Positions 725 to 28,886 of a stretch of 64,000 nucleotides of DNA are shown piece by piece. This DNA is from an uncultured Desulfobulbia bacterium (lineage in GTDB: Bacteria > Desulfobacterota > Desulfobulbia > Desulfobulbales > SURF-16): assembly GCA_964653055.1 (NCBI GenBank), contig CAZZCA010000002.1:2822-66821 (forward strand), written 5' to 3'. The notes under the pieces are model-generated. The model did not search any database and was not told the origin of the DNA. It saw nothing but the letters and a program-made list of their open reading frames with translations. Made by a program: the position numbers and the translations under genes. Within the stretch, counting starts at the first letter, position 1. The number at the start of each line of letters is the position of its first letter.

Positions 725-1453
725 ATGGTGTCCGGGAAAAATCAGCAAAAAAAGGGAGAAGGGCATAGGGAGCGGCTCCGTGATAAATTTCTGAAGCGGG
801 GTATAGGGGCCTTGAACGACGACGAGGTGCTGGAGCTGCTTCTTACTCTGGGAACCCCCCGGCGGGACTGTAAGGAGGCGGCCCGGGCTTTATTAAAGCG
901 TTTTGGCTCCCTTGCACAAGTTCTGGATGCGTCCCCTGATGCCCTGCAGGAAGTGCGCGGGGTTGGTCCCCATAACTCCTTTGCCATTGGTTTTATTCAG
1001 AGTGTTGCCCGCCGTTATCTTGATCAGCGCCTGCTTCAGCGAGATTATCTGCGCTCGTCCAGAGATGTTGCCGCTTTTCTTAATCACCAGATGCGCCATC
1101 TCCAGAAAGAGGTGTTCATGGTGCTCTTCCTCGATTCTTCTTTGGCTATTCTCGGGGCGGAGACGCTGTTTGAGGGGACTTTGGCCACCAATGTGGTTTA
1201 CCCCCGGGAATTGGTTAAAATGGCCATGGAGCGCCATGCTGCGGCCATTGTCATTGCCCATAATCACCCTTCCGGCAATCAGACCCCGTCAGCAGCAGAT
1301 CGGCAATTGACCAGTAAGCTTTTTTTGTCCTGCCAGCTCATGGATATCCGTCTTCTTGATCACCTTATTATTGGTCATGAGGATAAACCTTATAGCTTTG
1401 CTGATCACGGGCTTATGGCCGAGATCAAAGAACAATGTCGAAAGATCCTCTAA
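725..1453 (+). CDS. radC: RadC-family JAB/MPN domain protein (UPF0758)
   Basis: 242 aa with an N-terminal HhH-like region and the C-terminal JAMM signature AHNHPSGNQTPSAADRQLT. Confidence 0.9.
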   Translation: MVSGKNQQKKGEGHRERLRDKFLKRGIGALNDDEVLELLLTLGTPRRDCKEAARALLKRFGSLAQVLDASPDALQEVRGVGPHNSFAIGFIQSVARRYLDQRLLQRDYLRSSRDVAAFLNHQMRHLQKEVFMVLFLDSSLAILGAETLFEGTLATNVVYPRELVKMAMERHAAAIVIAHNHPSGNQTPSAADRQLTSKLFLSCQLMDIRLLDHLIIGHEDKPYSFADHGLMAEIKEQCRKIL

Positions 1454-2616
1454 GCCGGCCTGGCCAGCCTTCTTGTCTGGAAGCTGCTGCCTTTTATCTC
1501 CATATCCCCTACTGCCGGAGTAAATGCCATTATTGTTCGTTTAATTCCTTAGTTTTGGCTGGTCAGGACATTGCCGCCTATATCAGGGCCCTGGGGCGGC
1601 AGGCAGGAATGATGGCAGAACACCCTCTCGCCAGAGACCTTGTCTTTGAAACTCTGTTTGTCGGCGGCGGAACCCCTACAATTGTTCCGGCTTCTCTTCT
1701 TGCCGATTTATTGACTCGAATCAAAAATGATTTTTCTTTTACCGACCAGGTCGAGATTTCCATTGAGGCCAATCCCAATAGCCTTGACCTTGCTGACCTT
1801 GCCTTATTGCGTCGGGCCGGGGTAAATCGGCTCAGTATCGGGGTTCAGTCTTTTGATGATGATATTTTGCAGATCATTGGTCGTAGCCATACGGCCCATG
1901 AAGCCCGCAAGGCTGTTGCTCTGGCCCGGAAGGCTGGTTTTGCCAATATCAGCCTTGACCTGATATATGGACTGCCCGGACAGACGCCAGAGCTTTGGCG
2001 CCATAGCCTGCTTGCCGCCCTGGAGCTTGAGGTGGAGCATCTTTCTCTTTATCAATTAATGGTGGAGGAGAAAACGCCCCTTGCTCGTATGCTAAATCAG
2101 GGACATCTTGTTCTGCCGCAAGAGGATGCGGCCGTCGCCATGGACGAGATCAGTAGCGAGCTCCTGGCGGGTCATGGCTATGAGCGTTATGAAATTGCCA
2201 ATTATGCCAAGGCCGGATATCGCTGCCGTCATAATATGGTTTATTGGCAGAACAGGAATTATATAGGCCTGGGTGCCGGTGCAGTTTCCTGTGTGGGTGG
2301 TTTGCGTTTTAGCGGAATTAAATCACCGGATGATTTTATAATGGACCTTGTTGACAATAAACAGCCTGTTAGCCATGTAGAAGCCTTGTCTCGAGAGGCC
2401 AGGCTGCGGGAAACCATGATCATGGGCCTGCGGATGATTGATGGTTTGTCCATCTCTGAAATTGAAAGGAGGCTTGGTCTGAACCCTGCGGCGTATTACG
2501 GTGCTGAGCTTCAGCAATTAATTGAAAAGGGGTTGCTGGTTATGGATGAAGATCAGCTTCGGCTGACCCGTCAGGCTATGCCCCTGGCCAATCAGGTATT
2601 ATGTCAATTGGTTTAA
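1435..2616 (+). CDS. hemW: Radical SAM heme chaperone HemW (oxygen-independent coproporphyrinogen III oxidase-like)
   Basis: 393 aa with the radical SAM motif YLHIPYCRSKCHYCSF and a HemN-like C-terminal domain. Overlaps the radC 3' end by 19 nt. Confidence 0.9.
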   Translation: MSKDPLSRPGQPSCLEAAAFYLHIPYCRSKCHYCSFNSLVLAGQDIAAYIRALGRQAGMMAEHPLARDLVFETLFVGGGTPTIVPASLLADLLTRIKNDFSFTDQVEISIEANPNSLDLADLALLRRAGVNRLSIGVQSFDDDILQIIGRSHTAHEARKAVALARKAGFANISLDLIYGLPGQTPELWRHSLLAALELEVEHLSLYQLMVEEKTPLARMLNQGHLVLPQEDAAVAMDEISSELLAGHGYERYEIANYAKAGYRCRHNMVYWQNRNYIGLGAGAVSCVGGLRFSGIKSPDDFIMDLVDNKQPVSHVEALSREARLRETMIMGLRMIDGLSISEIERRLGLNPAAYYGAELQQLIEKGLLVMDEDQLRLTRQAMPLANQVLCQLV

Positions 2617-2621
2617 ATTAA

Positions 2622-5600
2622 TCAGATGGGGAGGATGTGGATTTCTTCCTTGGTTTGGTGGCCGCCCTGGAGAAGCAGACCCTGGCGACCATCAATGCTG
2701 ATCTGGTCGCCAAAACGGATGGTGTGGCCGTTGATCAGGCATTTTTCTTCATTTTCATAAACCTGGAGGGCCCGGCAGCCTACCAGACAGGTTTTTTCCA
2801 GGCGAATGGTCACCAGAGAGGCGTGGGAGGTCTGGCCGCCACGGGCGGTGAGGAGCCCATCGGCGGTGGAGATTTCCCGGATGTCTTCCGGTACGGTATC
2901 CTGCCTGATCAGGATCAGGGGGCTGTCTGGCGCTTTCCGGCGCAATTCCTTAATATTTTCCCTGTTGAAAACCGCCAGCCCGGACAGGGCACTGCCGCTT
3001 ACCCCGAGTCCTTTGCCCAGCAGGTTCTGGTCAACGGCCTCCTGGTCGGCAAAGACATTGAACCTTTCCTTTTTCTTAATGGTCATCATGTCCCTGGTCT
3101 GGAGGATATAAAGACCCGATTCTTCCGGGCTTTCAAAGGTAAATTCCAGCTCCTGCGGGTTCCATTGTTTTTTATAAACAAGGTCCCGGGCGATATCGAG
3201 TAATTTGCGATAAATGGCTGGAAATCGCCGTTCCAGGGTGTTGGCCACCGGTCGGCCGTCGATTTCGGCCTGTTCCACAGAAATGGCGTAGGTGCTTACC
3301 AGGCCGCTGACAATATCCTCGCCCTGGTCACCGGGAGCGTAATCGCCCCAGAGGGCCACCCTGCGCACTTTGCGGTAGGGATGGGCGGTGAAGACTACGC
3401 CGCTGCCGGAATTGCGGTTGAGGTTACCGTAAACCATGGCCTGGACAATTACCGCAGTGCCCCAGGAATCGGAGATATTCATCAGGTGGCGGAAGCCCTT
3501 GGTTTTTGCCGAATCCCAGGAGATCAGAACTATTTCCAGGGCACCGATGAGCTGCTGCCATGGATCTTCCGGAACCTTGATTCCAAGCTCTTCTATTTTG
3601 GTTTTATAGCTTAGGGCCAGCTCCTGCATCTGGGTCGGGGTAAATTCTTTTTTTACCTTAACACTGTGCCGTTCCTTGGCTTCGTTCATCAGGTTCTGGA
3701 AGATCTCCCGTTCGACCCCATGGCCCATGGCCCATGACTGGAGGAAGCGGCGGAAATTATCCCAGGCCAGATATTTCTGGCCGGAGCTTGCGGCAAAACC
3801 CCGGACAATTTCTTCGTTCAGCCCTACATTATGAATGGTGGCCATCATGCCCGGCATGGAAATAGAGGCTCCGCTGCGGACGGAAACAAGCAGAGGTTTA
3901 TGGGGGTCCTGGAAGAGGCGTCCGGTTTTTTTCTCCAGTACCTTTAACGATTGCAGGACCTGGTCCATAAACTCGTCCCGGGCTGCCCGGTACTGTTTTA
4001 CCACCGACCAGCAGCGGAAAATCTCGGTGGTGATGATGAAGCCTGGGGGTACTGGTTTCTGGTCTGCTGCCAGCTGGCTCAGGTTGAAGCCTTTATTGCC
4101 CAGGAGAATGATATTGCGGGCATGGGGGCTTTTTTGGCGCAGGTGGTGGATGACTTTTTCCGGATTATAGGTCATCAACAGGTCCAGCCGTTTCTGATCC
4201 AGGAGCTCTTTCTGCCGCTCCAGGGTCTGGTAGATTCTGGTAATGAAATTGTCGAGATGCTGCAGGCCGAAGGTCTGGGCGATGAGGTCCCGCATAAAGG
4301 TTTCGGAAAGACGGTGGATGGTCTCCTGCTGGTTTTCGTCCTCTTTTTCTTTTTCCTGCCAGAGATTCCGGTACCTGGCCAGCAGATTTTCCACACCGAT
4401 CTGGGGAATGATGATGGAGAGATTATTCTGGTGGACATTGGTGTAATAGGCGTAGATCAGGTCTTTTACCCCCTCTGACAGGCTGCGGAAAATGTCCAGG
4501 TATTGGGTATAGGAAAAGCGTTTGATCCCGAGGGAGTTGGAGAGCAGGGAAACCGAGGTTTCCAAACGGCGGCTGGTGATCCCGTCGATTTTCAGGGCCC
4601 GGAGATAGAGGCGCAGGCATTTGAGAATCCGGAGAAAGGTGGCCCGGGTAATCAGGGTCAGATTAATGGTGGAGGGCAGTTGCTCCAGAAAGATATTGGC
4701 CAGGCTCTCCAGGCGGAAGGAAAGCCCCAGGGCGTTAAATTTGCGCTCGTTATAGCAGCCGTAAACCGAAGGGATATCCACTGCAATATGACGTTTATAA
4801 TAGATGTCTTCTTTGGGCTCAAAGGTCTCCGAGCTTAAGATAATCTTCTTTAGTTTTTCCAGGTTGGTCAAGAGGGAGTTTAAGCATTGAACCGTGTCGC
4901 AGATCTCCAGATCGGCCAGTAATTGTTCCATTTCCGGAAAGCCGCCATTGGCAGCCTGCTCCAGTTGCAGGCGCAGTTCCTGGTAACCCAGGTTGTATTT
5001 CTGGTCCAGCAGCCGGTACATTTTAATCAGCAGCTGGAACCTTTTTATCTCCCGGGGATCAAGATCTTCCTGCCAAGAGAGAAAACGGTTAAGCCGGGAA
5101 TCGTCCCAGAGCAGCAGGTCTTCGCATTTGGTTATCTGGGGCTCCCGGAAGATGCGTCGGGCCAGACGATTAAGATCATTGACAAAAAGTCCATTTTCCG
5201 GGATCTGCTCCAGGATTTCCGGCGGCAGGTAGTCTTTAAGTAGGTTTTTATCCCGGCTATGCCAGAAACCGAGGATGGCCCTGATAAAATCGACAATCAG
5301 GTTGGAGCTCTCCACATGGCTCTGTTTTCGGAGGAAATGGATGAGCAGGTCTTTACGTTTGTGGATCTCGTCGATCTCAGTGGAAACATCCCTGAGCTGC
5401 CCTTCTGCTCCGATCTCATTGAAGAACACCGGCATCAGTTTGGCGAATTGTTTTACCAGGTTATAGACAGGTTCGATGGGATGGTTGAGCAGGCGACTGA
5501 TGTCACGCTGGAAAAGGTCCGTGTCTTTAACGCAGGTACCGGAAAGTTTCAGGTTGATGATCAGGGCGGAAAAAAGGGTGGCGCACCATTTGGGTTCCTG

Positions 5601-6869
5601 CATGATCAGGTTGAGCCAGACCCGGATATTAGCCAGATGGGATGGGTTGGTTATGGGCTGCCAGTCTTCATCTACCCCGGTAACATTGGCGTATTGGAAG
5701 CCGAATCGGACGGTTTCCCATAAAAATGTTTCCACCAGCCGGCTGCTGCCCCGGTTAAATACTTCAGCCCCCAAAACCTGGATACACTGGAGGGCGGTAT
5801 GGGGATAGCGGCTGATATTTTCCTTCAGCAGCTCCAGGGTGGTGAGGAGAAATGATTTAATCTCATCATAGGTCTGCTGGCGGATGAGCTGGACCAGGCT
5901 GCGGTTGATCTCCCGCAGGCTTTCTTCGTGGATGAGGTGGAGGCCGGGGGTACGCATGATCCGGAAGAGAAAGAGCAGTCGCCGGTTTTCGGCGAAACGG
6001 TCATTGTCCTCCGGGCCGGGCTGGCCCAGGGAAGCAAGTCGGGGTGGTATTTCCCGGTAGAGGCGGACAATATCGATATGGGCCGGCATGGCCAATAACC
6101 TGTCCAGTTCTTCCGGCTGGCCGGATAGCTCAATTTTCTGGAGAAAAGCCAGCTGACGGCTGATCTCTTCGTGGGAAATCGAGTTGAAGAGTTTGCCGGC
6201 ATCCCAGTCATTGCACATGTCCTGACATTGGGAAAGGAACCAGGGCAGGGGGTTTTCCTCTTTAAGCCAGTAGCGGTAATTAAGTTCAAGGACTTTCTGG
6301 AAAAGAAGGGTAAGCGGCATCAGGTTGACAGCAACACCCGTCTGCCGGCAGCGCTGGCTCAGGAGCTGGCTGATTTTTTTAATGGGGTGTTGACCCTGGG
6401 CAATGAGAAGTAGAAGGTCGTCATTTAACTGGTGAATTCTGGTAAAGAACTCGGTGAGGGCCTGGTCAAATTTATTCAGCTCAGGGCCGGCGGTTATGGT
6501 GAGGACCTGTTCGGCGTAGGCCAGGATTGATTCAGTGGCCAGGTTCAACAGGGTATCGTTTTTGCGGATGTCGGTGAGGGCAAGAAAGAAAAGTTCGTTG
6601 AAACACCTAAAGGATTCCGGCCCCTTGGGGCTGCGACAATAAAGTTCGGCATTACCCAGGGCAAAGGTACGGAGCCGTGGCAGAATCAGCTGCCAGTTGC
6701 GGTAGGGATGGTAAATTTCAGTAAGAATTTCTTCCAGAGAGGAATGAATCCCCCGGTAATTGACAACCTCGGCAAGAAGCAGGTTCATTGCCGGATCGAT
6801 TATTACCTGGTCAACAGCGGTCTCCTCCAGGTTGGCCTTAAGGGCGGCGGAATTAAACTTTTTGGTCAT
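2622..6869 (-). CDS. Large dikinase-like protein: uncharacterised ~900-aa N-terminal region + PPDK-type nucleotide-binding (ATP-grasp) domain + PEP-utilising-enzyme phospho-His swivel domain; no PEP/pyruvate TIM-barrel domain
   Basis: 1415 aa. Residues ~920-1265 carry PPDK N-terminal motifs: GNKGFNLSQL, PVPPGFIITTE, LLVSVRSGASISMPGMMATIHNVGLN, EDPWQQL, GTAVIVQAMVYGN, SGSGVVFT, GEDIVSG, LEFTFE..LYILQTRD. Residues ~1285-1415 are the swivel domain (ILIRQDTVPEDI, TARGGQTSHASLV; His codon at 2823-2825). The ORF stops 66 aa after the His. Confidence 0.8.
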   Translation of the reverse strand: MTKKFNSAALKANLEETAVDQVIIDPAMNLLLAEVVNYRGIHSSLEEILTEIYHPYRNWQLILPRLRTFALGNAELYCRSPKGPESFRCFNELFFLALTDIRKNDTLLNLATESILAYAEQVLTITAGPELNKFDQALTEFFTRIHQLNDDLLLLIAQGQHPIKKISQLLSQRCRQTGVAVNLMPLTLLFQKVLELNYRYWLKEENPLPWFLSQCQDMCNDWDAGKLFNSISHEEISRQLAFLQKIELSGQPEELDRLLAMPAHIDIVRLYREIPPRLASLGQPGPEDNDRFAENRRLLFLFRIMRTPGLHLIHEESLREINRSLVQLIRQQTYDEIKSFLLTTLELLKENISRYPHTALQCIQVLGAEVFNRGSSRLVETFLWETVRFGFQYANVTGVDEDWQPITNPSHLANIRVWLNLIMQEPKWCATLFSALIINLKLSGTCVKDTDLFQRDISRLLNHPIEPVYNLVKQFAKLMPVFFNEIGAEGQLRDVSTEIDEIHKRKDLLIHFLRKQSHVESSNLIVDFIRAILGFWHSRDKNLLKDYLPPEILEQIPENGLFVNDLNRLARRIFREPQITKCEDLLLWDDSRLNRFLSWQEDLDPREIKRFQLLIKMYRLLDQKYNLGYQELRLQLEQAANGGFPEMEQLLADLEICDTVQCLNSLLTNLEKLKKIILSSETFEPKEDIYYKRHIAVDIPSVYGCYNERKFNALGLSFRLESLANIFLEQLPSTINLTLITRATFLRILKCLRLYLRALKIDGITSRRLETSVSLLSNSLGIKRFSYTQYLDIFRSLSEGVKDLIYAYYTNVHQNNLSIIIPQIGVENLLARYRNLWQEKEKEDENQQETIHRLSETFMRDLIAQTFGLQHLDNFITRIYQTLERQKELLDQKRLDLLMTYNPEKVIHHLRQKSPHARNIILLGNKGFNLSQLAADQKPVPPGFIITTEIFRCWSVVKQYRAARDEFMDQVLQSLKVLEKKTGRLFQDPHKPLLVSVRSGASISMPGMMATIHNVGLNEEIVRGFAASSGQKYLAWDNFRRFLQSWAMGHGVEREIFQNLMNEAKERHSVKVKKEFTPTQMQELALSYKTKIEELGIKVPEDPWQQLIGALEIVLISWDSAKTKGFRHLMNISDSWGTAVIVQAMVYGNLNRNSGSGVVFTAHPYRKVRRVALWGDYAPGDQGEDIVSGLVSTYAISVEQAEIDGRPVANTLERRFPAIYRKLLDIARDLVYKKQWNPQELEFTFESPEESGLYILQTRDMMTIKKKERFNVFADQEAVDQNLLGKGLGVSGSALSGLAVFNRENIKELRRKAPDSPLILIRQDTVPEDIREISTADGLLTARGGQTSHASLVTIRLEKTCLVGCRALQVYENEEKCLINGHTIRFGDQISIDGRQGLLLQGGHQTKEEIHILPI

Positions 6870-6878
6870 CTAATACCT

Positions 6879-7886
6879 TTACAGGGCTTTTTCGTTTTCC
6901 ATATGGAGGATCAGGTCCAGCACCCGGTTGGAATAACCCCATTCATTGTCGTACCAGCTCATAATCTTGACCATATTGCCCTGGATAACCCTGGTGGACA
7001 TGGCATCTACCACCGAGGAGCAGGGATTGCCCTGGTAGTCGATGGAAACCAGGGGCTTGTCGGAAAAGCCAAGGTAGCGGTTGCTGGCTCCTTCCAGCTC
7101 CTGATTTACTTCGGAGACTGTGGTTTCCTGCTCCACCTCCATCACCGTATCAATTATTGAAACATTGGCGGTGGGAACCCGCACAGCCAGACCGTCGAAT
7201 TTACCCTTCAGTTCCGGAATAACCTTGGCAACGGCAGCAGCGGCCCCGGTACGGGTGGGGATCATTGACAGGGCAGCTGCCCGGGCCCGGCGCAGATCGC
7301 TATGGGGAAAATCAAGGATCCGCTGGTCATTGGTATAGGAATGGATAGTGGTCATCAGGCCCTTGCGCAGGCCAAAGCGGTTGAGAATGACCTTGGCCAC
7401 CGGCGCCAGGCAATTGGTGGTGCAGGAGGCGTTGGAAACAATGTGGTCCTTGCCGGGGTCGTATTCATGTTCATTAACCCCCATGACAATGGTTTTGACC
7501 TTGCCCTTGGCCGGGGCGGAAATAATAACCTTGGCCGCACCGCTGTCAAGATGGCCCTCGGCCTGTTCACTGCTGGTGAACAGCCCTGTAGCTTCGATAA
7601 TATACTCAGCTCCGGTCTCTGTCCAGGGGATGTCCCCGGGGGTCCGGTGGTTGGTTACCGGGATGAATTTGCCCGCCACCTTGATCCCGCCTGGCTCCGA
7701 ATCTACCTCTTGGGTCATGGTTCCCATGATGGAGTCGTATTTCAGGAGGTGGGCCAGGGTTTCGGTATTAGTCAGATCGTTGATGGCGACAACTTCAAGG
7801 TTCTGGAAAAGGGGGTCTTTGCCTATGGCCCGGAAGATACTTCTGCCGATACGACCAAAACCGTTGATGCCAATTGCGATTGTCAT
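6879..7886 (-). CDS. gap: Type I glyceraldehyde-3-phosphate dehydrogenase
   Basis: 335 aa with INGFGRIGR NAD-binding motif, active-site SNASCTTNCLAP, and WYDNEWGYS. Confidence 0.97.
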   Translation of the reverse strand: MTIAIGINGFGRIGRSIFRAIGKDPLFQNLEVVAINDLTNTETLAHLLKYDSIMGTMTQEVDSEPGGIKVAGKFIPVTNHRTPGDIPWTETGAEYIIEATGLFTSSEQAEGHLDSGAAKVIISAPAKGKVKTIVMGVNEHEYDPGKDHIVSNASCTTNCLAPVAKVILNRFGLRKGLMTTIHSYTNDQRILDFPHSDLRRARAAALSMIPTRTGAAAAVAKVIPELKGKFDGLAVRVPTANVSIIDTVMEVEQETTVSEVNQELEGASNRYLGFSDKPLVSIDYQGNPCSSVVDAMSTRVIQGNMVKIMSWYDNEWGYSNRVLDLILHMENEKAL

Positions 7887-8686
7887 GACTCCCTCCCCTC
7901 TTGTTGTTGGTTAAGCTGAAAGTTACGGGCTTCCCCATTGGCGGGATTAAGCTCCAGGGCTTTCTTATAGGTAGCGGCAGCCTCCTGCCACCACAGCCCT
8001 TCCTGGTAGCTTCTTGCGGCCTGGCAATAGCCTTCATCTCCCTTACCGGCGAAGATTTCGCTGAAGATGTCAGCCAGTGGTTCGGCCCATAATTCTGTGG
8101 CCATCTCTTCATGTTCCACCAGATAGCGCAGGAGGAGGCGGTTATTCTTTAACGATGGCAGGGTAATTCGCAGGAGATAATTGGCCCGGCCGAACATCAT
8201 GCCGATATCCTCAAGCTGGCTGGCGGCCTCTTTTAAGATCCGTTCCATTAAACGCTGACATTCAAAGCCGCAGTGGATGGTGGTTTCATCTGCCTCATGC
8301 TGCAGGCCCTGGGCCAGTGGCCCGTAATATTTATGAAGGTAGATATTTTCCTTCAGCTTCATTGCCTCGTGGAAGATGGAGCCGATGAGCCAGTCCAGGA
8401 GGTAGCCGTTGATTTCCGGCAGGGTTTCGCTTTGTTGCCAGAGCTGATGACAATGATCCTTGAGTAGCCAGAGGCTGCCTTTATTATTCTCGCTTCCCAC
8501 CAGCCGATCCAGATCCTGGTAGGAGATATGGCCGGAATGAAGATAGCGTTGATAGATGTCAAGAAACCCCTTCATGGTGTGGTGAAAACCACGGAAAAGG
8601 TTTTTGGTGAAATAGTCACGGCGGGCGCTGTACCAGCGATTCTGACCCTGACCTGGGTTATTGAGGATGGGCTCTATTTTCTGCAT
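7883..8686 (-). CDS. Hypothetical protein with C-terminal TPR-like segment
   Basis: 267-aa ORF. It overlaps the glgA-like stop by 13 nt and the gap start by 4 nt. Only the TPR-like tail (AATYKKALELNPANGEA) is recognisable. Confidence 0.6.
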   Translation of the reverse strand: MQKIEPILNNPGQGQNRWYSARRDYFTKNLFRGFHHTMKGFLDIYQRYLHSGHISYQDLDRLVGSENNKGSLWLLKDHCHQLWQQSETLPEINGYLLDWLIGSIFHEAMKLKENIYLHKYYGPLAQGLQHEADETTIHCGFECQRLMERILKEAASQLEDIGMMFGRANYLLRITLPSLKNNRLLLRYLVEHEEMATELWAEPLADIFSEIFAGKGDEGYCQAARSYQEGLWWQEAAATYKKALELNPANGEARNFQLNQQQEGRES

Positions 8687-10239
8687 AGGGTGATTGCTTC
8701 GCGGTAGAGCTGCAGGTATTTTCGAACCACCTGGTTCCAGGAATAATTTTCCCTGATATTAAGAACAGCCTTTCTCTGTATCTTAGCAAGAATTTCCGGG
8801 TTACGGCGGAAAATTTTCAGGGCATTTTTGATGGTCTCTTCCAGGGTGGTGTTATTGTGGGCACCGTAGCTGAAACCGGTTTGGCCATGGATTATTTTCA
8901 CCAGGCCTCCCACATGATGGACAATGGGAATATTGCCAAAGAGCTGGGCGATATAATCGGTAAGGCCACAGGGCTCGTACAGGGATGGCAGCAGGAAGAA
9001 ATCACCGGCAGCATAGATCTTGTTGGCAATGTCCCGGTCATATCCCTGGAGAACACAGAGCCGACCCTTGAATTTCTGGCAGAGCGAGGTTAGTTCAGCT
9101 TCAATCTCTCTGCTGCCGGTGCCGAGAATTACCACCTGGAATTTTTTATCTTCTGCCAGCAGCCTGGTCAGGGTTTTGATGAGGTCGGCAAAGCCTTTCT
9201 GGGCTGAAAAACGGCTGATCATGGAAAGCAGGGGCCAGTCCGGCTCCATGGCAAGTGAGCCGTGGACAGTGACCCCGGTCAGCTGGTCAAGGTGGTTAAT
9301 CAGGCTTTTTTTACAGATTTTTTTGCCGGCAAGGTCCATGGTTGCAGGGTTAAAGGGGGCGGCAAGGTTCAGTATTTTATGGTGCCTGGGGTTAAAATCC
9401 CCCGGGTTGATGCCGTTGGTGATACCCCTGATTTGCACCCCTTTTTCCCGAAGAAGATGACCCAGGCCACCGGTTAATTTATCGGCCTGGGTTTCCTGGA
9501 GCTCCCGGGCATAATTTTCGCTGACAGTATTGATGATGGCATAGGGGCCGGCGGCGAGAAAGGGGTTAAAAGAGCCGTGGAGAAGGTGTTGGTCGGTTAC
9601 GGCGGTTGGCAGGCCTGTAATGGCCCGGGCAAAGGGCAGATCGTCAATCTCCTGGTGATAACCAAGGCCGGCATTATGGACGGTGACCACCATCCCGGTA
9701 TTACGGAAAAAATGACGGAAACCTTCAAGTTCCCGGGCCATGGCCGGGATCAGGGCGGTATGGCCGTCGTGACAATGGATAATGGCTGGTGGCTCCCGGA
9801 GAATCATCATCAGGCAGAGTGCCGCCTTCTCCAGCAGAACATTCATGGCAAAATAATCGTAATGACCGTTGCCTTGCTGATGGAGAGGGTTGGCCTCTTC
9901 GTCTGCGGTGGAATAGGTGTAAACCGAGTTTTTTTCACGGTAGCGCCGGGTATCGATCAGGTAAATATGGAGATTTGCCCATTCCTGCTGCCAGACCTGG
10001 ATCTCTTCCCGTCGTTCTTCGCCAACATAGTCCATGTCCACGGTAAATTGCGGGCCCGGGCTAAAGCCCAGGTCTTTCGGGTTCATGAATCCATAGCAGG
10101 GCAGGCAGACCGAGACCTGGCAATGACGGCTTAATGCTTCTGCCAGCTGACGGCAGACGTCTTTGATGCCCCCGGCTCCGGCCAGGCCTTCATATTCCCT
10201 GGTAATCAGCCAGGCATGCTTGAGGGTTTTTTTGCTCAT
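8674..10239 (-). CDS. glgA: Glycogen/starch synthase-like glycosyltransferase (GT5 N-terminal + GT1 C-terminal), divergent
   Basis: N-terminal EYEGLAGAGGIKDV sits in the position of the KTGGL motif. C-terminal LLPSLYEPCGLTDYIAQLFGNIPIVHHVGGL resembles GlgA. Start chosen at the internal Met (MSKKTLKHAWLI); the longest ORF reaches 10284 and would overlap aroC. Confidence 0.8.
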   Translation of the reverse strand: MSKKTLKHAWLITREYEGLAGAGGIKDVCRQLAEALSRHCQVSVCLPCYGFMNPKDLGFSPGPQFTVDMDYVGEERREEIQVWQQEWANLHIYLIDTRRYREKNSVYTYSTADEEANPLHQQGNGHYDYFAMNVLLEKAALCLMMILREPPAIIHCHDGHTALIPAMARELEGFRHFFRNTGMVVTVHNAGLGYHQEIDDLPFARAITGLPTAVTDQHLLHGSFNPFLAAGPYAIINTVSENYARELQETQADKLTGGLGHLLREKGVQIRGITNGINPGDFNPRHHKILNLAAPFNPATMDLAGKKICKKSLINHLDQLTGVTVHGSLAMEPDWPLLSMISRFSAQKGFADLIKTLTRLLAEDKKFQVVILGTGSREIEAELTSLCQKFKGRLCVLQGYDRDIANKIYAAGDFFLLPSLYEPCGLTDYIAQLFGNIPIVHHVGGLVKIIHGQTGFSYGAHNNTTLEETIKNALKIFRRNPEILAKIQRKAVLNIRENYSWNQVVRKYLQLYREAITLCRK

Positions 10240-10244
10240 CAGGA

Positions 10245-11327
10245 TCAGTCGTCGGTCATTTCGGTTTCCGGCAGTAATTGACATGCCCGGTTCCGGAGGA
10301 GGTGGTCGGCCAGGGTCAGGCAGACCATGGCCTCACAAACCGGGATGATCCTGGGAATTGCCGAAATATCATGGCGGCCGCCTATCTTGATCTCCACTGG
10401 TTCATTGTCCATATTTACTGTCTGCTGGCTTTTGCCGATGGAGGGGATTGGTTTCACCGCCACCCGGCTGATAATTGGCTCACCATTGGAGATGCCGGCC
10501 AGGATCCCGCCGGCATGGTTAGAGGTGAAGCCGTCCGGGGTAATGGCATCGTTGTTTTCCGAGCCGGTCATGGAGGCTGCGGCAAAACCGGAACCGATCT
10601 CCACTGCCTTGACTGCCCCGATGGACATCAGGGCTCCGGCCAGATCGCCGTCCAGTTTATTAAAAACCGGCTCACCCAGTCCGGCCGGACAGCCGGCGGC
10701 CAGGATCTCGACAATTCCCCCCAGGGTATTACCTTCGTTCTTAACCTGGCTGATTTTCTCTTCCATGCGTTTGGCCGCCTCAGGGTCAGGGCAGCAGAGG
10801 CGATTATCCCGGATGGCGTTCAGGTCCAGGTTCTCAATAAAAATCCCCCCCAACGACAGGGTATAGGCCAGAACCTCGATATCGTGACTGGCCAGGATCT
10901 TCCGGGCCACGGCACCGGCTGCTACCCGGGCTGCGGTTTCCCGGGCCGAGGCCCGGCCTCCGCCGCGGTGGTCCCGGATCCCGTATTTGCAGAGATAGCT
11001 GAAATCCCCATGGCCGGGGCGGAAGATATCCTTTAAGTGGTTATATGACTTACTGTGGGCGTCTTTATTGAAGATCACAAGAGAAATGGGGGTCCCGGTG
11101 GTCATTCCTTCAAAAACACCGGAGAGGATCTCCACCTTGTCCGGTTCTTTGCGGGGAGTGGACGGGCCGCCGCCGCCCGGTTTACGGCGGTCAAGGTCCT
11201 GCTGGATATCTGCCGGGGCCAGGGGAATGCCTGCCGGGCAGCCGTCGATGGTGGCGCCGATGGCGGTTCCGTGTGATTCACCCCAGGTGGTTATGCGAAA
11301 AATCTGGCCAAAAGTATTTCCTGCCAT
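10245..11327 (-). CDS. aroC: Chorismate synthase
   Basis: 360 aa with MAGNTFGQIFRITTWGESHG, GRSSARETA-like motif (GGGRASARETAARVAAG), and GGRHD. Confidence 0.97.
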   Translation of the reverse strand: MAGNTFGQIFRITTWGESHGTAIGATIDGCPAGIPLAPADIQQDLDRRKPGGGGPSTPRKEPDKVEILSGVFEGMTTGTPISLVIFNKDAHSKSYNHLKDIFRPGHGDFSYLCKYGIRDHRGGGRASARETAARVAAGAVARKILASHDIEVLAYTLSLGGIFIENLDLNAIRDNRLCCPDPEAAKRMEEKISQVKNEGNTLGGIVEILAAGCPAGLGEPVFNKLDGDLAGALMSIGAVKAVEIGSGFAAASMTGSENNDAITPDGFTSNHAGGILAGISNGEPIISRVAVKPIPSIGKSQQTVNMDNEPVEIKIGGRHDISAIPRIIPVCEAMVCLTLADHLLRNRACQLLPETEMTDD

Positions 11328-11340
11328 TGTTCTACCTTTT

Positions 11341-11868
11341 TTATTGTAGTTGGTTTTGCCATGACCTGGTGATCTGGCTGACGATATCTTTTAAGTCTAT
11401 ATCGGTGTTTATCTGCAGGTCAGAGCCGGCCTCATAAAGAGGGGTTCTTTCTTTGAGAACTGTATTTACTTCCTGTAAAATATCATTACCGGTGAGTGAT
11501 GGACGCTGGCCGGCGGTTGCCAGGTCTTCTGCCAGTCGCTGGCAGATAACCTCGGTGCTGGCGGTGAGCCAGATGGTCAGGGCTGTCTGGCGGAGACCTG
11601 CCCAGGCATTTTCGTGGAGAATGGCGCCACCACCGGTGGCAATAACAATTTCTTGCGCCTGGCATAGTTCTGTTAGCAGGTTCTTTTCCTGCTTTCTGAA
11701 AAAATCCCAGCCCTGTTGTCCTACCATCTCACTGATGGAGCAATTATTGCGCTTTTCAATCTCCAGATCAGTATCAAGGAAACTGAAATTAAGCCTTTCT
11801 GCCAATAATCTGCCCACAGAAGTTTTTCCGGTGGCCCGGTAGCCGGTGAGAATAATTTTATTTTTCAT
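11341..11868 (-). CDS. aroK: Shikimate kinase
   Basis: Walker A GYRATGKTSVGRLLA; ATGGG motif. Start placed at MKNKIILTG; the longest ORF starts at 11907. Confidence 0.9.
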   Translation of the reverse strand: MKNKIILTGYRATGKTSVGRLLAERLNFSFLDTDLEIEKRNNCSISEMVGQQGWDFFRKQEKNLLTELCQAQEIVIATGGGAILHENAWAGLRQTALTIWLTASTEVICQRLAEDLATAGQRPSLTGNDILQEVNTVLKERTPLYEAGSDLQINTDIDLKDIVSQITRSWQNQLQ

Positions 11869-12046
11869 TATCCCATGATAAACGAAGTTGTTTTTTTTTG
11901 TCATCATTATATTTACCCTTTACCACCTGTATCTTTAGGGCTAATTTGTAGGCAGTTTTAATGCCTATTGGCTTACAAGCAGTTAATGGGCAATGATGTG
12001 ATAATTAACAGCCATCCTTGATGGTTTTCAGATTTGGGAGAATAAA

Positions 12047-16803: not shown

Positions 16804-17841
16804 TTATGGTCGAAGTACTTTGATAAAGGCGTCAACCACCGTGGGGTCGAACTGGATATTTTTCTGGCTGATCATCTCGTCAATGGCCTCATCATGGCTC
16901 ATATTGACCTTGTAGCTGCGCTTGGAGGTCATGGCGTCATAACTGTCGGCTACAGCGACAATTTTGGCCAGGATGTCAATTTCATCTCCGTGGAGACCGT
17001 CAGGATAGCCATTGCCGTCCAGCCGCTCGTGATGATGGCGGACAATAGTACCCTCTCTGCCGAGAAAGCTCAACGGCCGGATAATATTTTCTCCCACTGC
17101 CGGATGTTTCTTGACCAGATCCCATTCATCCCCTGAAAGGGGCCCCGGTTTCTGGATGCAGCTGACATCAATGATCAGTTTGCCGATATCATGGAGCTGG
17201 CAGGCCCGGGTGACAATTCCCAGCTCAAGCTGGGAGAGTTGCATGGCCTTGCAGATCTGGCGGGAATAGTCGGTCACCCGTCGGGTATGGCCGGCGGTGT
17301 ATGGGTCTTTTTCTTCCAGGGCGGTATTTAAGGTGATGATGGTGTTGACAGTGGAGACCTCCAGGTGGTGACTGTATTTCTCCAAGAGAATGTTTTTTTC
17401 CGCCAGCTCCCTGGTTTTATTTTTAACTTCCTGCTCAAGGTTCTCGGTGTATGATTTTTCCTTGCGGAGAAACATTTTTTTCTCCACTGCCCGGCGGATT
17501 TTCACCTCAAACAGGTCAATGTCGGTGATGGGCTTGGCAATGAAATCGTAGGCTCCCAGGTTGATGGCCTTGATGGCATACTCCATGGAACCGGCCCCGG
17601 TGAGAAAAAGGACCGGAATATCAAACCCCTGGTTATTGATCTCCTGCATGGTTTCAAAGCCGTCTATCCCCGGCATATTGATATCAAGGATGATGGTGTC
17701 GAAATCGTCGTTGATGACGGCAAGGGCCTCCTGGCCGCTGGCCACCCCGGTGATATCGTAGCCGAATAGTTCAAGAATCTTGGCCACGGCATCCCGTACC
17801 AGGTTGTCATCATCAGCAAGAAGAATTTTAGAGTTAGCCAT
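16804..17841 (-). CDS. Response regulator with HD-GYP phosphodiesterase output domain (RpfG family)
   Basis: N-terminal REC domain (ILLADDD...DTIILDINMPGIDGF). C-terminal HD-GYP domain (LHDIGK, HHERLDGNGYPDGL). Confidence 0.92.
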   Translation of the reverse strand: MANSKILLADDDNLVRDAVAKILELFGYDITGVASGQEALAVINDDFDTIILDINMPGIDGFETMQEINNQGFDIPVLFLTGAGSMEYAIKAINLGAYDFIAKPITDIDLFEVKIRRAVEKKMFLRKEKSYTENLEQEVKNKTRELAEKNILLEKYSHHLEVSTVNTIITLNTALEEKDPYTAGHTRRVTDYSRQICKAMQLSQLELGIVTRACQLHDIGKLIIDVSCIQKPGPLSGDEWDLVKKHPAVGENIIRPLSFLGREGTIVRHHHERLDGNGYPDGLHGDEIDILAKIVAVADSYDAMTSKRSYKVNMSHDEAIDEMISQKNIQFDPTVVDAFIKVLRP

Positions 17842-17931
17842 TATTTATTTTTTTGTAAAAACAATACCTTCCGTGAAAAGGATTTTTTTTGTCGGGTTGA
17901 TTAATCTTGGGACTCGGGTAAAAAAATTAAT

Positions 17932-18972
17932 TTACAGAGTCCAGTAATTTTTTGCAATTCTTTGTGCCTCATCCAGGGCCGGCAGCGGATTGTTGTTGTT
18001 GGTAAAGGCGGCCAGGTCATCTTTGCTGAGAATGGAAGAGCCGCAAAGTTCATTGATCACCGCCATTGCTCCGTCGGCAAGACCGGTGAGATCATAGCCC
18101 CCCTCCAGGGTTATGACCAGTCGTCCCTGGCATACCTCCGCTGCCACCTCCATGAGGGCCCTGGTCATATAGGCAAAACCCTTTTCCGTGACATTCATCC
18201 CGCCTAAAGGGTCAGCATAATAGGTGTCGAAGCCGGCAGAGACCAGGATCAGCTCCGGCTGGAATTGGCGGGTTATGGGGACGAGTAATTCGTTAAAGAT
18301 CCGGGCAAAGGCGTGGTCGCCCTGGCCACCGCTCAGAGGGACATTTACGGTATAGCCCTCTCCCTTGCCGCTGCCCACCTCACCTGCCCCGCCGCTTCCA
18401 GGATAATAGGGGTATTGGTGGCTGGAAAAATAAAGAACCTGCCTGCTGTCGTAGAAGGAATGCTGGCTGCCGTTTCCGTGATGCAGGTCCCAGTCAACAA
18501 TGAGAATTTTCTGTAATTTGAGCTCGTCCAGGGCATAGCGGGCTGCCACGGCTACATTGTTAAAAAGACAAAACCCCATGGCCCGTTCTTCTTCGGCATG
18601 GTGTCCCGGTGGGCGGACCAGGGCAAAGCCGTTGTCAGCCTCACCTGTCGTTACCATCCGGCAGCCTTCGATAACTGCGCCGGCAGCAAGGCAGGCTGCT
18701 TCAAATGACTGGGGGGAGGTGGCGGTATCCGGGTCCAGGGCATTAAAGGTCTGGCCGGCTGTTGCTGCTATCTGTTTATAAAGCCGGGAGGTGTGGTTGC
18801 GGGTCAGCTGGCGGTAGTCTGCTGCCGGCCAGGAGGCTGGCATTATGGTATTGGCCGGTTGCTCCTGGTCAAGGCGTTGATAGATTGCCCGGAGGCGGTC
18901 GGCTGATTCCACATGGTTAAAACCGGGGTCATGTTCCAGAAATAGATCGTTGCGAAAGATGGCGGTGGTCAT
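17932..18972 (-). CDS. Histone deacetylase-family (class II HDAC-like/acetylpolyamine-type) amidohydrolase
   Basis: 346 aa with RPPGHHA, FCLFNNVAVAA, DWDLHHGNG, and EGGY. Confidence 0.9.
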   Translation of the reverse strand: MTTAIFRNDLFLEHDPGFNHVESADRLRAIYQRLDQEQPANTIMPASWPAADYRQLTRNHTSRLYKQIAATAGQTFNALDPDTATSPQSFEAACLAAGAVIEGCRMVTTGEADNGFALVRPPGHHAEEERAMGFCLFNNVAVAARYALDELKLQKILIVDWDLHHGNGSQHSFYDSRQVLYFSSHQYPYYPGSGGAGEVGSGKGEGYTVNVPLSGGQGDHAFARIFNELLVPITRQFQPELILVSAGFDTYYADPLGGMNVTEKGFAYMTRALMEVAAEVCQGRLVITLEGGYDLTGLADGAMAVINELCGSSILSKDDLAAFTNNNNPLPALDEAQRIAKNYWTL

Positions 18973-19556
18973 GGGTGAATCCTTGTAATTTCTTTTTCGG
19001 TTATCAGGTATTGCAGGGGGATGTCATGGGCCATGGTGGGGACTTTGTTAACCACCTGGGTTTCATAGGCCAGGCCGATTCGCAGGGCCTGGGGGGCCTG
19101 GTTGGCCAGAAAACGGTCATAATAGCCGCCGCCATAGCCCAGGCGTCCGCCTTGACGGTCAAAGACGCTTCCCGGGATCAGGACAATATCCAGCTTGTCC
19201 GGGGCGATTGCAGAAAGTTTTTTAGAGTCCGGCTCCGGGATCTGGCAATACCCCGGAATAAGGTCATCATCCGGCCTGGTGATCAGGTAGGGAACGAGAC
19301 GGTGATCCCGGGTAAGGGTAAGGGGAGCTGCAGTCCGGATATTTTGTGTTCGGCATTGCTTGAAAAGGTCCATGGTTTCCACTTCGCTGCGGAAATTGAC
19401 ATAGAGCATGATGGTGGCGGCTTCTTTCGTTGCCGGAATCTGCCAGAGGTTCTGTAAGATAAGTTTGCTGGCTGTGGCCCTGGTGGTGGCTGGAAGCTTG
19501 TCCCTTTTGTTTAAAATCTGCTGACGCAGGGTATGTCTCGGGTCTTCTTTTGCCAT
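18969..19556 (-). CDS. 5-formyltetrahydrofolate cyclo-ligase
   Basis: 195 aa with the GGRLGYGGGYYDRFL signature. Confidence 0.92.
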   Translation of the reverse strand: MAKEDPRHTLRQQILNKRDKLPATTRATASKLILQNLWQIPATKEAATIMLYVNFRSEVETMDLFKQCRTQNIRTAAPLTLTRDHRLVPYLITRPDDDLIPGYCQIPEPDSKKLSAIAPDKLDIVLIPGSVFDRQGGRLGYGGGYYDRFLANQAPQALRIGLAYETQVVNKVPTMAHDIPLQYLITEKEITRIHP

Positions 19557-27700: not shown

Positions 27701-28886
27701 AGAGGGTGAGCAGGCCCTTGGTAAGGCCTGGCAGTTTTTTTCTGATTGGGGTGGTACGGCCAAGCTCAAGCAGATGGCAGCCCGCTACCAGTCCCTTGTC
27801 CCCATGTCTGTTTCTCTTGCCGACCAAAAGGTAATGGCAGAGGGCGACGGTCAGTATCAATTATTGGCGGATAATGTTCGGGATGCGATCTGGGCCATGG
27901 ATCTTAATTTTAATTTCACCTATATCAGTCCTTCGGTTACGCAGCAGCGCGGTTATTCGGTGGATGAGGCCATGGCCCTTGGCCTGGCCGGCACCCTTGC
28001 CCCGTCGTCCTATGAAAAGGTGGTGGCCCTTATTGCCGGGATCATGCCTCAGCTCCAGACTGGTCAGTTTTCCGGGTTTGGTCGATCCCTCGAGCTGGAG
28101 ATGACCCATAAGGATGGGTCTTGGGGCTGGTATGAAGTGAATATGGATGTGCTTAAGGATCGGCATAATAGGCCCATTGGTTTTTCCGGGGTCAGTCGGG
28201 ATATCGGTAAGCGTCGTGAGCTGATTAAGCGCATGGAGGGTTCGGAAAAACGCCTGCATCGTCTGGCTGGTCATCTTCAGCAGGGCCGGGAGAGAGAACG
28301 GGCCCGGATTGCCAGGGAGATGCATGACGAGCTGGGACAGGCCCTGACCGGCCTGCGCCTGGATATGATGGGACTTTATCGCCGTCAGCAGAGGATGGAG
28401 CAGGGAAGTGAAGAGGTCCGGCAGATGATTAAAACGGTTGAAGAGCTGTCGGCCTCGGTTCAGCGGATGTGCGGAGAGTTGCGGCCCAGCCTCCTGGACA
28501 ATCTCGGGTTGAAGGCGGCCATGGATCATCAGCTCAGGGAGTTTGCCCGTCGTCATCCGGACTGTGAGGTGCTCCAGGAAATTGATGAAACTGTTCTCGA
28601 TCCGGAGCGATCCATTACTGTTTATCGGATCTTGCAGGAAAGTCTTACCAATATTTTGCGCCATGCCGGGGCCAGCCGGGTGCTGGTAAGTTTTCGTCTG
28701 ATGGATGATGATCAGGTTAAACTGGAGGTGGCAGACAATGGCCGGGGAATTCCGGTGGAGAAGCTTGATGATGTCAGTTCTTACGGTATTGGCGGGATGC
28801 GGGAGCGGGCCCAGACCTGGAACGGGCGGCTGGAGATTGAAGGGGGAGATGGCACCTTGATCCGCCTGGTGATGCCAATGAGATAG
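24723..28886 (+). CDS. AAA16/STAND-type ATPase - TPR-like helical region - PAS - HisKA_3/HATPase_c sensor histidine kinase
   Basis: 1387 aa with Walker A GESGVGKT (24885-24908). PAS region begins around YQLLADNVRDAIWAMD. HisKA_3 H-box REMHDELGQ (His codon 28323-28325). HATPase N/G boxes: NILRHAGA, DNGRGI. Start is either GTG 24723 (GTGA overlap with the RSH stop) or ATG 24756 preceded by AGAGGAG. Confidence 0.88.
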   Translation: MTQEKEENVPIMVDSVIRQFVGVDLFIGREQELASLWLAHHRISGGPAVMVLIAGESGVGKTCLVDNLGRQLAENDHLLIRGKFDQFDLGVPYSGFVQALDQLAVHLLSLDQDDRLAFCHRFEREMAGNGFLVTGLAPRLEEIVGPQPSLASVGEKEGRNRFEQALESFFRVIATREHPLTLFLDDLQWVGQASLGLLQRLLTRNQYLLIIGACRSGEVGEDHCLSVFLDSCNKHGDSGGVGTLPNLVTDHLSCFSRGNMVLAIILEPFDLVQVGKLASSLLYGQQLPSSLSSLLQAKTGGNPLLVKQVLASLWLEGVIFIDQEGGEWKWNQEEVDRFFAGDINKLINRQLSHYNDEELHLLGFAACLGYRFNADLMALVSNFARSRVLDFFQRLTGDGLLVHERGGNGFYHFAHDRFQGAAYLLVKDDERASQHLAIARGVQRYWGDVRDEAIFFLMVEQFNKGSSLLVDTKAKFELARFNLEAGYKARKGTDYNRAEHYFTLGLAILPDDCWESDYGLTVNLARQQGECLFLIGDLAGSEAAFRKILQQSLDILDRVAVHEYMILIHESKDDPEEGLAWGFRGLALLGEKVSSSAVALQILRELALVRWRLRGQRLQQFARLAPMENDRIKARFNLMMRMMPVSYFVDINVSVFLALRMTNLSLAYGLHPATSFALLTYAVAEGSFFGRYQFASQVADQAMFLSREDGSDSFTTRIGHLYGTFICHWTKPLPLAIRELEGAIDIAGVNGDVFYGHYALSALLLDQLMAGYSLSSIEDLARLASIEEPDLYFHNILQISSLVPVVLAMLRGQEPGQVNLPAVEGLGRVEEVFEQFKKTKIDSYYHYFIIFRMVSLYLAADYRQARSLAVEIEHEVGSKLLGQLAVPVHNFFYSLSLAGCYREACRLEKMKIRGQIWLNQRKMGRWAENSPENFQPCYLLVEAERACLRHDDGRAEELYQKAAELAEENGFNHYAGIAWERLAMLYLVGGGNEEGEQALGKAWQFFSDWGGTAKLKQMAARYQSLVPMSVSLADQKVMAEGDGQYQLLADNVRDAIWAMDLNFNFTYISPSVTQQRGYSVDEAMALGLAGTLAPSSYEKVVALIAGIMPQLQTGQFSGFGRSLELEMTHKDGSWGWYEVNMDVLKDRHNRPIGFSGVSRDIGKRRELIKRMEGSEKRLHRLAGHLQQGRERERARIAREMHDELGQALTGLRLDMMGLYRRQQRMEQGSEEVRQMIKTVEELSASVQRMCGELRPSLLDNLGLKAAMDHQLREFARRHPDCEVLQEIDETVLDPERSITVYRILQESLTNILRHAGASRVLVSFRLMDDDQVKLEVADNGRGIPVEKLDDVSSYGIGGMRERAQTWNGRLEIEGGDGTLIRLVMPMR

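Follow-up and report, generated by a model that had tools for sequence, protein, structure and literature searches.

The dikinase-like gene at positions 2622–6869 of the minus strand, in a 64,000-nucleotide stretch of DNA from an uncultured Desulfobulbia bacterium (the window), encodes a protein of 1415 aa that belongs to a widespread, unannotated family derived from pyruvate, phosphate dikinase (PPDK). The family carries a novel 900-residue domain and is genomically tied to glyceraldehyde-3-phosphate dehydrogenase (GAPDH). The region is a conserved Desulfobulbales operon, and its notable member is this PPDK-derived phosphotransferase, which is partnered with GAPDH and not with a glucan synthase. 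A preliminary description of the DNA had raised the possibility that the dikinase-like protein acts on, or is regulated with, either an alpha-glucan or a pool of glycolytic intermediates. The glycolytic alternative fits the linkage to GAPDH that we see across phyla. The idea of a glucan-phosphorylating dikinase tied to the neighboring glycosyltransferase (GT5) is contradicted by the fold, the domain order, and the gene neighborhood. The protein is probably GAPDH-coupled and not glucan-directed.

Full-length homologues of the protein number more than 1000 at 90% clustering. The N-terminal domain alone is matched by 560 clusters at 50% identity, and 435 GTDB species genomes carry the two-part architecture. 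The named carriers include Desulfobulbales, Desulfurivibrionaceae, Thiovibrio, Electrothrix, Thermodesulfobacterium geofontis OPF15, Geobacteraceae, Clostridia/Lutisporaceae, and Bacteroidales/Lentimicrobiaceae. Sequence identity is 61–72% across Desulfobulbales, and the family is recognisable across phyla. Databases label its members as PPDK, phosphoenolpyruvate (PEP) synthase (PEPS), ‘ppdk2’, or ‘PEP/pyruvate-binding domain-containing protein’, and two thirds of the protein are covered by no Pfam model. A literature search on Desulfobulbaceae, PPDK-like/GAPDH operons, phosphoglycerate dikinase, and pyrophosphate (PPi)-dependent PGK returned no paper on the family, and the only relevant find was the mycobacterial protein VadK.

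GAPDH is the conserved genomic partner of the dikinase-like gene

We inspected the neighborhoods of the dikinase-like gene in two sets of loci, neither of which was de-replicated by lineage. The set outside Desulfobulbales comprised 87 loci obtained by a metagenome scan with a distant-member profile and by look-ups in Clostridia, Bacteroidota, and Geobacteraceae; the Desulfobulbales set comprised 67 loci with at least 1.3 kb of upstream DNA. Outside Desulfobulbales, 67 of the 87 loci had GAPDH as the immediate neighbor of the dikinase; among the 59 loci with room on both sides, 50 did. This adjacency was seen in Clostridia, Bacteroidota, and Geobacteraceae. The GAPDH gene was downstream on the same strand in 34 loci, downstream and convergent in 13, on both sides in 10, upstream and divergent in nine, and upstream on the same strand only in one. 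After GAPDH, the recurrent neighbors were pgk, tpi, and secG. Several loci were ordered gap-dikinase-gap-pgk-tpi-secG, and in others tpiA-secG was the divergent neighbor of the dikinase. Enolase, pyruvate kinase, PFOR, and other genes of the PEP/pyruvate node were not recurrent near the dikinase. None of the 87 loci had GT5, orf267, aroC, or aroK, the other members of the window operon, near the dikinase, and no other glycogen gene was recurrent there. Since GAPDH is the neighbor across phyla, and GT5 and orf267 appear only in and around Desulfobulbales, GAPDH is the hub of this association.

The genes of the two partners overlap or sit a few nucleotides apart in several loci. In the cultured T. 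geofontis OPF15, a gap gene is followed after 2 nt by the dikinase gene (product WP_013910164.1), which overlaps a second gap gene by 4 nt. In this single locus (L171, 3750–7998), the gap-dikinase-gap module lies directly after lptB-rpoN-hpf-rapZ and an acetyltransferase gene. In two other loci, both of one lineage (L134, 4986–5879; L135, 3187–3969), tpiA is divergent upstream of the dikinase, with secG next to it in L134, and the flanks of both contain no GAPDH gene. One Bacteroidota-like locus (L102, 3346–4164) has a PpsR-like gene, identified from its N-terminal sequence only (IFIVSDGTGRTA), two genes upstream of the dikinase. PpsR is the regulatory kinase-pyrophosphorylase of PEP synthase and PPDK, and the regulatory Thr of the TSH motif is kept in the dikinase family (T1347).

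The gap gene of the window (6879–7886, minus strand) encodes a type I glyceraldehyde-3-phosphate dehydrogenase, which scores above the cutoff of TIGR01534 (416.1 versus 367.2 bits). Its catalytic Cys (SCTTN) and His (TIHSYT) are present, together with the NDL motif, the Asp of which usually marks NAD specificity. Outside Desulfobulbales, the usual downstream or convergent partner is a long GAPDH paralogue of 415–440 aa with several insertions (L081, 12314–13567; L086, 12098–13420; L125, 10269–11540; L171, 12158–13405). This paralogue scores below the TIGR01534 cutoff and keeps the catalytic Cys and His as well as conserved Thr/Arg positions, which we take to be phosphate-site residues. The Asp of the NDL motif is missing (GRE instead), and the paralogue may be NADP(H)-linked. 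It appears to be an undescribed GAPDH subfamily. The partner GAPDHs as a whole span very different subfamilies, with 30–55% identity and large insertions.

In the Desulfobulbales set, gap was less than 400 bp upstream of the dikinase on the same strand in 40 of the 67 loci and 0.7–6 kb upstream in 15. The full order aroK-aroC-GT5-orf267-gap-dikinase recurs in about 15 loci. The glgA-orf267-gap-dikinase neighborhood noted in the preliminary description is common in Desulfobulbales, and it is absent from the 87 loci outside, where only GAPDH persists. In L168 and L169, the aroK-aroC-GT5-orf267-gap block has no dikinase gene directly downstream of gap; the existence of such blocks in some Desulfobulbales indicates that GT5 tracks gap and not the dikinase. 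In a Desulfocapsa locus (L071), gap is missing from between the two, and GT5 itself immediately precedes the dikinase. In L058 (7080–9862), genes for a response regulator-HD protein, a histone-deacetylase-like protein, and a 5-FTHF cyclo-ligase are directly upstream of the dikinase, and the same three genes are found 7–10 kb upstream of it in the window (16804–19556). Judging from this difference in spacing, the aroK-to-gap block and the genes up to the cyclo-ligase gene are missing or relocated in the L058 lineage.

A PPDK-type catalytic half without the TIM barrel

The 1415-aa protein is arranged as an N-terminal domain of ~905 residues, a PPDK-type ATP-grasp domain, and a phospho-histidine swivel domain. 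Residues 913–1413 align to residues 5–513 of PPDK (EC 2.7.9.1; Clostridium symbiosum, 1KBL) with an E-value of about 1e-98. The shared part consists of the ATP-grasp domain, the linker, and the swivel His domain with its TSH motif and the nucleotide-site residues, and from this end-to-end alignment a three-site swivelling mechanism would be expected. Pfam places PPDK_N at residues 965–1201 and PEP-utilizers at 1317–1397, and these are its only matches. We judged the catalytic residues by alignment to PPDK (1KBL/9PZL, residues 14–338, and the PPDK His domain). The nucleotide-binding ATP-grasp domain (residues about 913–1260; 3090–4133, minus strand), which aligns to residues 14–338 of C. symbiosum PPDK, keeps GxKG (K926), SVRSGA (R998), RRF (R1040/1041), ExEFT (E1240/E1242), and LQTR (Q1257/R1259). 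The swivel domain (residues about 1281–1404; 2658–3029, minus strand), defined by Pfam PEP-utilizers and the alignment to the PPDK His domain, contains the catalytic His1349 within RGGQTSHA. A translation check places its codon at 2823–2825. His1349 is conserved in at least 90% of the sequences in every alignment and is invariant in alignments A1 and A3, and the Thr of the TSH motif is conserved alongside it. As judged from these alignments, the PPDK-type machinery for ATP-dependent phosphorylation of His1349 is intact.

What distinguishes the protein from PPDK is the lack of the PEP/pyruvate TIM barrel, the presence of the all-alpha N-terminus of ~900 residues, and GAPDH as the partner gene. 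No Pfam match to PEP-utilizers_C (PF02896) was found, and the chain stops at a position corresponding to PPDK residue 513 or so, just where the barrel would start. A split PPDK with a separately encoded TIM barrel was considered and ruled out, as no such recurrent neighbor gene exists. The scores are far below the cutoffs of the PPDK, PEPS, and VadK-type models; TIGR01828 (PPDK), for example, gave 361.3 bits against a cutoff of 843.45. The C-terminal half is matched by NF004531, an NCBIfam model of a short PPDK-type protein with 534 positions (7.6e-87), at a score of 292 against a cutoff of 456.

Loss of the TIM barrel has a precedent in VadK (Rv1127c) of Mycobacterium tuberculosis, a PPDK derivative that keeps ATP-dependent His autophosphorylation despite the loss (bioRxiv 10.1101/2025.10.30.685616). 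VadK is actinobacterial, is about 490 aa long with no extra domain, and is linked to methylcitrate-cycle enzymes, whereas the dikinase-like protein has 900 more N-terminal residues and a link to GAPDH, and falls short of the NF004531 cutoff. Rifampin phosphotransferase, PEP synthase, phenylphosphate synthase, and PigC/RedH likewise combine the ATP-grasp and swivel-His module with differing acceptor domains. They set the example for a change of substrate through exchange of the acceptor domain (PMC4844700), and the NCBIfam matches to this group are weak. The acceptor domains of these enzymes are unrelated in sequence to the N-terminal domain described here, and none of the enzymes is GAPDH-linked.

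The N-terminal domain is conserved and predicted to be all-alpha

The uncharacterised N-terminal domain (about 905 residues; 4155–6869, minus strand) was modelled with AlphaFold2 from an alignment of 61 sequences, giving a confident prediction with a pLDDT of 86.2 and a pTM of 0.78. The model consists almost entirely of helices, with a single beta-hairpin at residues 686–707. A Foldseek search of the PDB with this model returned generic solenoids only (TM 0.1–0.2). No credible match was found when a profile of the domain was compared with all PDB sequences or when residues 1–905 were searched against Pfam at E<=10. The size of the domain and its Asp-rich DTDLFQRD motif had prompted us to consider a PEPC-like or terpene-synthase-like fold, for which Foldseek gave no support.

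About 50 residues of the domain, many of them charged, are invariant and lie in short motifs that are found across phyla. The conserved motifs are DTDLFQRD, FNEIGAEGxLRDVST, HFLRKQxHVESxN, and KRHIAxxIPSxYG. Over 47 representatives, down to 27% identity, the invariant positions include H411, D449, R493, D500, R514, K515, H518, K624, K692, H694, R860, and D873. This grouping of invariant charged residues suggests that the N-terminal domain has a site at which an anionic ligand is bound or converted. Conservation of the whole 900-residue region is nearly equal to that of the catalytic half.

We also looked for domain fusions that could hint at the function. The core always occurs with PPDK_N and PEP-utilizers, and the only fusion found was an N-terminal hemerythrin. 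This extra domain (hemerythrin, HHE cation-binding; about 145 aa) is present in one subgroup, represented by P0286 and P0280, and suggests that sensing of O2, redox, or iron is coupled to the enzyme in some anaerobes.

Proposed function and alternatives

We propose a mechanism in which the ATP-grasp domain would use ATP, probably together with phosphate (Pi) and with release of AMP and PPi as in PPDK, to phosphorylate His1349. The phosphorylated swivel domain would then swing to the N-terminal all-alpha domain, which would take the place of the TIM barrel and offers invariant Arg, Lys, His, Asp, and Glu residues. There a small, negatively charged molecule of the triose level, close to the GAPDH reaction, would take over the phosphate. 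The shared chemistry should involve GAPDH substrates, given that the catalytic residues are unchanged even where the partner is a paralogue and not a true GAPDH, and that the dikinase gene occurs within gap-pgk-tpi operons. The most likely reaction would be 3-phosphoglycerate + ATP (+ Pi) = 1,3-bisphosphoglycerate + AMP + Pi (or PPi). An enzyme of this kind would run alongside PGK, form AMP, possibly be PPi-linked and reversible, and hand the labile acyl phosphate to the adjacent GAPDH. That the phosphohistidine delivers its phosphate to 3-phosphoglycerate, and that the 1,3-bisphosphoglycerate so formed feeds GAPDH, is a proposal we make tentatively. The fuller version, an unrecognised AMP-forming 3-phosphoglycerate dikinase in complex with GAPDH and parallel to PGK, with an undescribed 900-residue all-alpha fold as its catalytic domain, is more doubtful.

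Transfer from phosphohistidine to an acyl phosphate is known in succinyl-CoA synthetase and ATP-citrate lyase. From textbook standard free energies, the reaction of 1,3-bisphosphoglycerate with AMP and PPi to give 3-phosphoglycerate, ATP, and Pi is close to equilibrium. Being near equilibrium, a PPi-linked reaction could drive gluconeogenesis or recover ATP from AMP and PPi. The proposed pairing would be analogous to PGK with GAPDH, ProB/ProA, ArgB/ArgC, and Ask/Asd, in which an acyl-phosphate-forming kinase is paired, and often co-encoded, with a GAPDH-type or ASADH-type reductase. In some lineages the dikinase is inserted in gap-pgk-tpi operons. PGK itself has no sequence or fold relationship to the dikinase-like protein and, unlike the reaction proposed here, forms ADP.

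Several observations weigh against this proposal. No GAPDH gene is nearby in 9 of the 59 loci outside Desulfobulbales with room on both sides, and in 12 of the 67 Desulfobulbales loci. The only pointer to 3-phosphoglycerate as the substrate is gene neighborhood. In several lineages pgk shares the operon with the dikinase, so the dikinase is not simply a PGK replacement. A fold of the predicted alpha-solenoid-like kind is usually seen in scaffolds that bind proteins, and less often in active sites for small molecules. Furthermore, both the hemerythrin-bearing subgroup and the example of VadK, a truncated PPDK that acts as a regulator (bioRxiv 10.1101/2025.10.30.685616), favor a regulatory role.

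Such a role would make the protein a VadK-like regulatory phosphotransferase or scaffold. The ATP-grasp and His module would autophosphorylate as in VadK, and the N-terminal domain would dock GAPDH and possibly other glycolytic enzymes. The protein would then phosphorylate GAPDH or exert allosteric control over flux at this step, with O2 or the redox state as a conceivable signal. We regard this main rival reading as rather unlikely, with several lines of evidence on its side. VadK, a PPDK that lost its TIM barrel, phosphorylates itself on His and has enzymes of the methylcitrate cycle as interaction partners (bioRxiv 10.1101/2025.10.30.685616). The NF004531 match covers the C-terminal half, the N-terminal fold resembles alpha-solenoid scaffolds only, hemerythrin is fused in one subgroup, and adjacency to GAPDH would be expected equally if GAPDH were the target and if the two proteins had a metabolite in common. 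The T. geofontis module follows rpoN-hpf-rapZ, at the place that genes of the PTS-Ntr phosphorelay (ptsN, npr) occupy in proteobacteria. This position is suggestive of regulation, in a single locus. However, the roughly 50 invariant and often charged residues in short motifs would be expected of a site for catalysis or ligand binding sooner than of a surface for docking, and the whole of the 900 residues is nearly as conserved as the catalytic half. The diversity of the partner GAPDHs is also harder to fit to one protein-protein interface. It is possible that the two roles are combined, with the N-terminal domain docking GAPDH and the phosphohistidine acting on 3-phosphoglycerate held in the GAPDH active site.

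Alternatively, the protein may be a dikinase for another small molecule. It could convert pyruvate to PEP through a non-homologous domain and be co-regulated with a gluconeogenic GAPDH, or it could act on a different triose-level acceptor such as glycerate, glyceraldehyde, or dihydroxyacetone. Of all dikinases, PPDK is by far the nearest to the nucleotide half, and the database labels of PPDK, PEPS, or ‘ppdk2’ agree with such an activity. The lack of the NDL Asp in the long GAPDH partner is a hint that this enzyme is anabolic and NADP(H)-linked, like GapB of Bacillus subtilis, and the PpsR-like gene in L102 also speaks for this reading. We think it as unlikely as the regulatory one. Swapping a working TIM barrel for an unrelated 900-residue domain that performs the same reaction is unparsimonious, genes of the PEP/pyruvate node are not recurrent nearby, and hydroxyl acceptors such as glycerate and glyceraldehyde have no neighborhood support. 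Among the acceptors considered, we keep 3-phosphoglycerate as the tentative choice.

A bacterial glucan (glycogen) dikinase working with the adjacent GT5 glucan synthase is extremely improbable. The tight packing of GT5-orf267-gap-dikinase, which is syntenic in many Desulfobulbales, speaks for it, as does L071, where GT5 is immediately 5′ of the dikinase without gap. The protein is also in the same superfamily as the glucan, water dikinase (GWD) and PWD of plants and algae, which are large multidomain proteins with PPDK_N, a phospho-His domain with the catalytic His, and an N-terminal region for substrate recognition. In GWD, carbohydrate is recognised by CBM45 or CBM20 modules, and the nucleotide domain is C-terminal, after the His domain. 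By contrast, the dikinase-like protein is all-alpha in its N-terminal region, has the ATP-grasp domain before the His domain, and has no family-wide link to glucan genes. The preliminary description had seen no carbohydrate-binding module (CBM) by eye, and Pfam and the AlphaFold2 model of the N-terminal domain likewise revealed no CBM or beta-sandwich anywhere in the protein. The CBM20/CBM45-like fold for which a search by structure prediction had been suggested is not found in the all-alpha model. Moreover, no GT5 or other recurrent glycogen gene accompanies the dikinase in other phyla, GT5-orf267-gap is kept without a dikinase directly downstream in L168 and L169, and GT5 evolves far faster than the dikinase in the same loci (31–41% versus 61–72% identity).

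Operon structure in the window

The dikinase gene is the last of six consecutive open reading frames on the minus strand (2622–11907), which are present as previously described, with aroK and aroC upstream on the same strand. The packed run begins with an aroK/aroL-type shikimate kinase gene (11341–11907; Pfam SKI, 2e-42), for which NCBIfam shikimate kinase models match with scores below their cutoffs. The next gene is aroC for chorismate synthase (10245–11327; Pfam, 1e-139; NF003793 above cutoff). It is followed by the divergent GT5 glycogen/starch-synthase-like glycosyltransferase gene (8674–10239, the longest open reading frame extending to 10284; Pfam Glyco_transf_5 and Glycos_transf_1), orf267 (7883–8686), and gap.

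We read the junctions directly from the sequence and reproduced the earlier spacings. GT5 and orf267 overlap by 13 nt (ATGCAGAAAATAG), orf267 and gap overlap by 4 nt (ATGA), and 9 nt separate the gap stop from the start of the dikinase gene. The ATGA overlap is preceded by GAGGGGAGGGAG, a GGAGG-rich stretch. The true start of GT5 is probably the second ATG at 10239: the start at 10284 would overlap aroC by 40 nt, and the ATG at 10239 is 5 nt past the aroC stop and fits the N-termini of homologues (L071) better.

The preliminary description had named independent promoters and terminators at the junctions as a finding that would refute its hypothesis. In our scan, no terminator-like hairpin was found at any operon junction, and promoter-like matches were at chance level (10 versus 9.2 expected). 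A promoter-like match of 11/12 inside gap (7549–7522) was likewise indistinguishable from chance. Co-transcription of the cluster is plausible. The packing and overlaps are ordinary bacterial operon structure and unremarkable, and the conservation of the cluster exceeds chance. On the other side of the dikinase, a convergent hemW-like radical-SAM gene (1435–2616, plus strand) ends 5 nt from the dikinase stop codon (2622–2624, minus strand; window 2614–2624). As this leaves no intergenic room for a terminator, the two transcripts have to run past each other or end within the opposing gene.

GT5 and orf267

The GT5 protein is matched by Pfam Glyco_transf_5 (1e-32) and Glycos_transf_1 (1e-12), and its score with TIGR02095 (GlgA) is below the cutoff (273.9 versus 328.45). 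Its nearest relatives of solved structure in the PDB are Arabidopsis SS4 (2.7e-29) and E. coli GlgA (2.5e-23). The catalytic EPCGL region is present, with YEPCGLT aligned to FEPCGLT of SS4. GlgA-type synthases carry a lysine in the N-terminal K-x-G-G-L motif, and this motif of GT5 reads GAGGIKDV, with Gly replacing the lysine. GT5 may use another donor and acceptor than classical GlgA does. Syntenic GT5 proteins across Desulfobulbales (window versus L002–L080) are 31–41% identical, against about 72% for gap and 61–72% for the dikinase at the same loci, which marks GT5 as fast-evolving.

The orf267 product is a small all-helical protein with a TPR-like pair at the C-terminus. Only weak TPR matches were obtained from Pfam and none from NCBIfam, and its 122 homologues are all hypothetical proteins. 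The AlphaFold2 model (pLDDT 91) is all-helical. Foldseek gave no significant match in the PDB (best E 0.26), the TPR-like resemblance being confined to the last 100 or so residues. A relationship to the N-terminal domain of the dikinase was ruled out by hhalign (probability 0.2%). The family is restricted to Desulfobulbales and related lineages and has a conserved GSIFHEAMKLKENIY motif. In L168 and L169, orf267 lies between GT5 and gap, and a carbonic anhydrase gene follows in place of the dikinase. A distant homologue of 320 aa in L170 (3303–4265) is divergent from a gap-pgk-tpi operon. The orf267 family is itself GAPDH-associated, and the protein may be a GAPDH-binding or regulatory protein.

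Other genes in the window

Two further genes on the plus strand encode multidomain proteins. The first (24723–28886) encodes an unusual giant sensor kinase of 1387 aa with an N-terminal AAA_16 (STAND-type) ATPase and PAS, HisKA_3, and HATPase_c domains, and adjoins a RelA/SpoT-family gene (22624–24726). The second (58151–60232) encodes a 693-aa fusion of a class II aldolase and a short-chain dehydrogenase, which is the architecture of rhamnulose-1-phosphate aldolase/alcohol dehydrogenase.

Significance

Textbooks treat GAPDH and PGK as fixed components of central metabolism, and the dikinase adjoins GAPDH in most of the sampled loci. The PPDK and PEP synthase labels of the family probably distort metabolic reconstructions of sulfate reducers, relatives of cable bacteria, and gut or digester anaerobes. 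T. geofontis is a cultured carrier, so the function is testable with recombinant protein. If the protein were a 3-phosphoglycerate dikinase, it would be an alternative enzyme for a core carbon step in Desulfobulbales (including relatives of cable bacteria), Thermodesulfobacteria, Geobacteraceae, Clostridia, and Bacteroidales, with consequences for the ATP/AMP/PPi economy of the carriers. Whichever function survives, be it a dikinase parallel to PGK, a step that recycles PPi and AMP, or a regulator of GAPDH, it would add new biology to a core node of metabolism.

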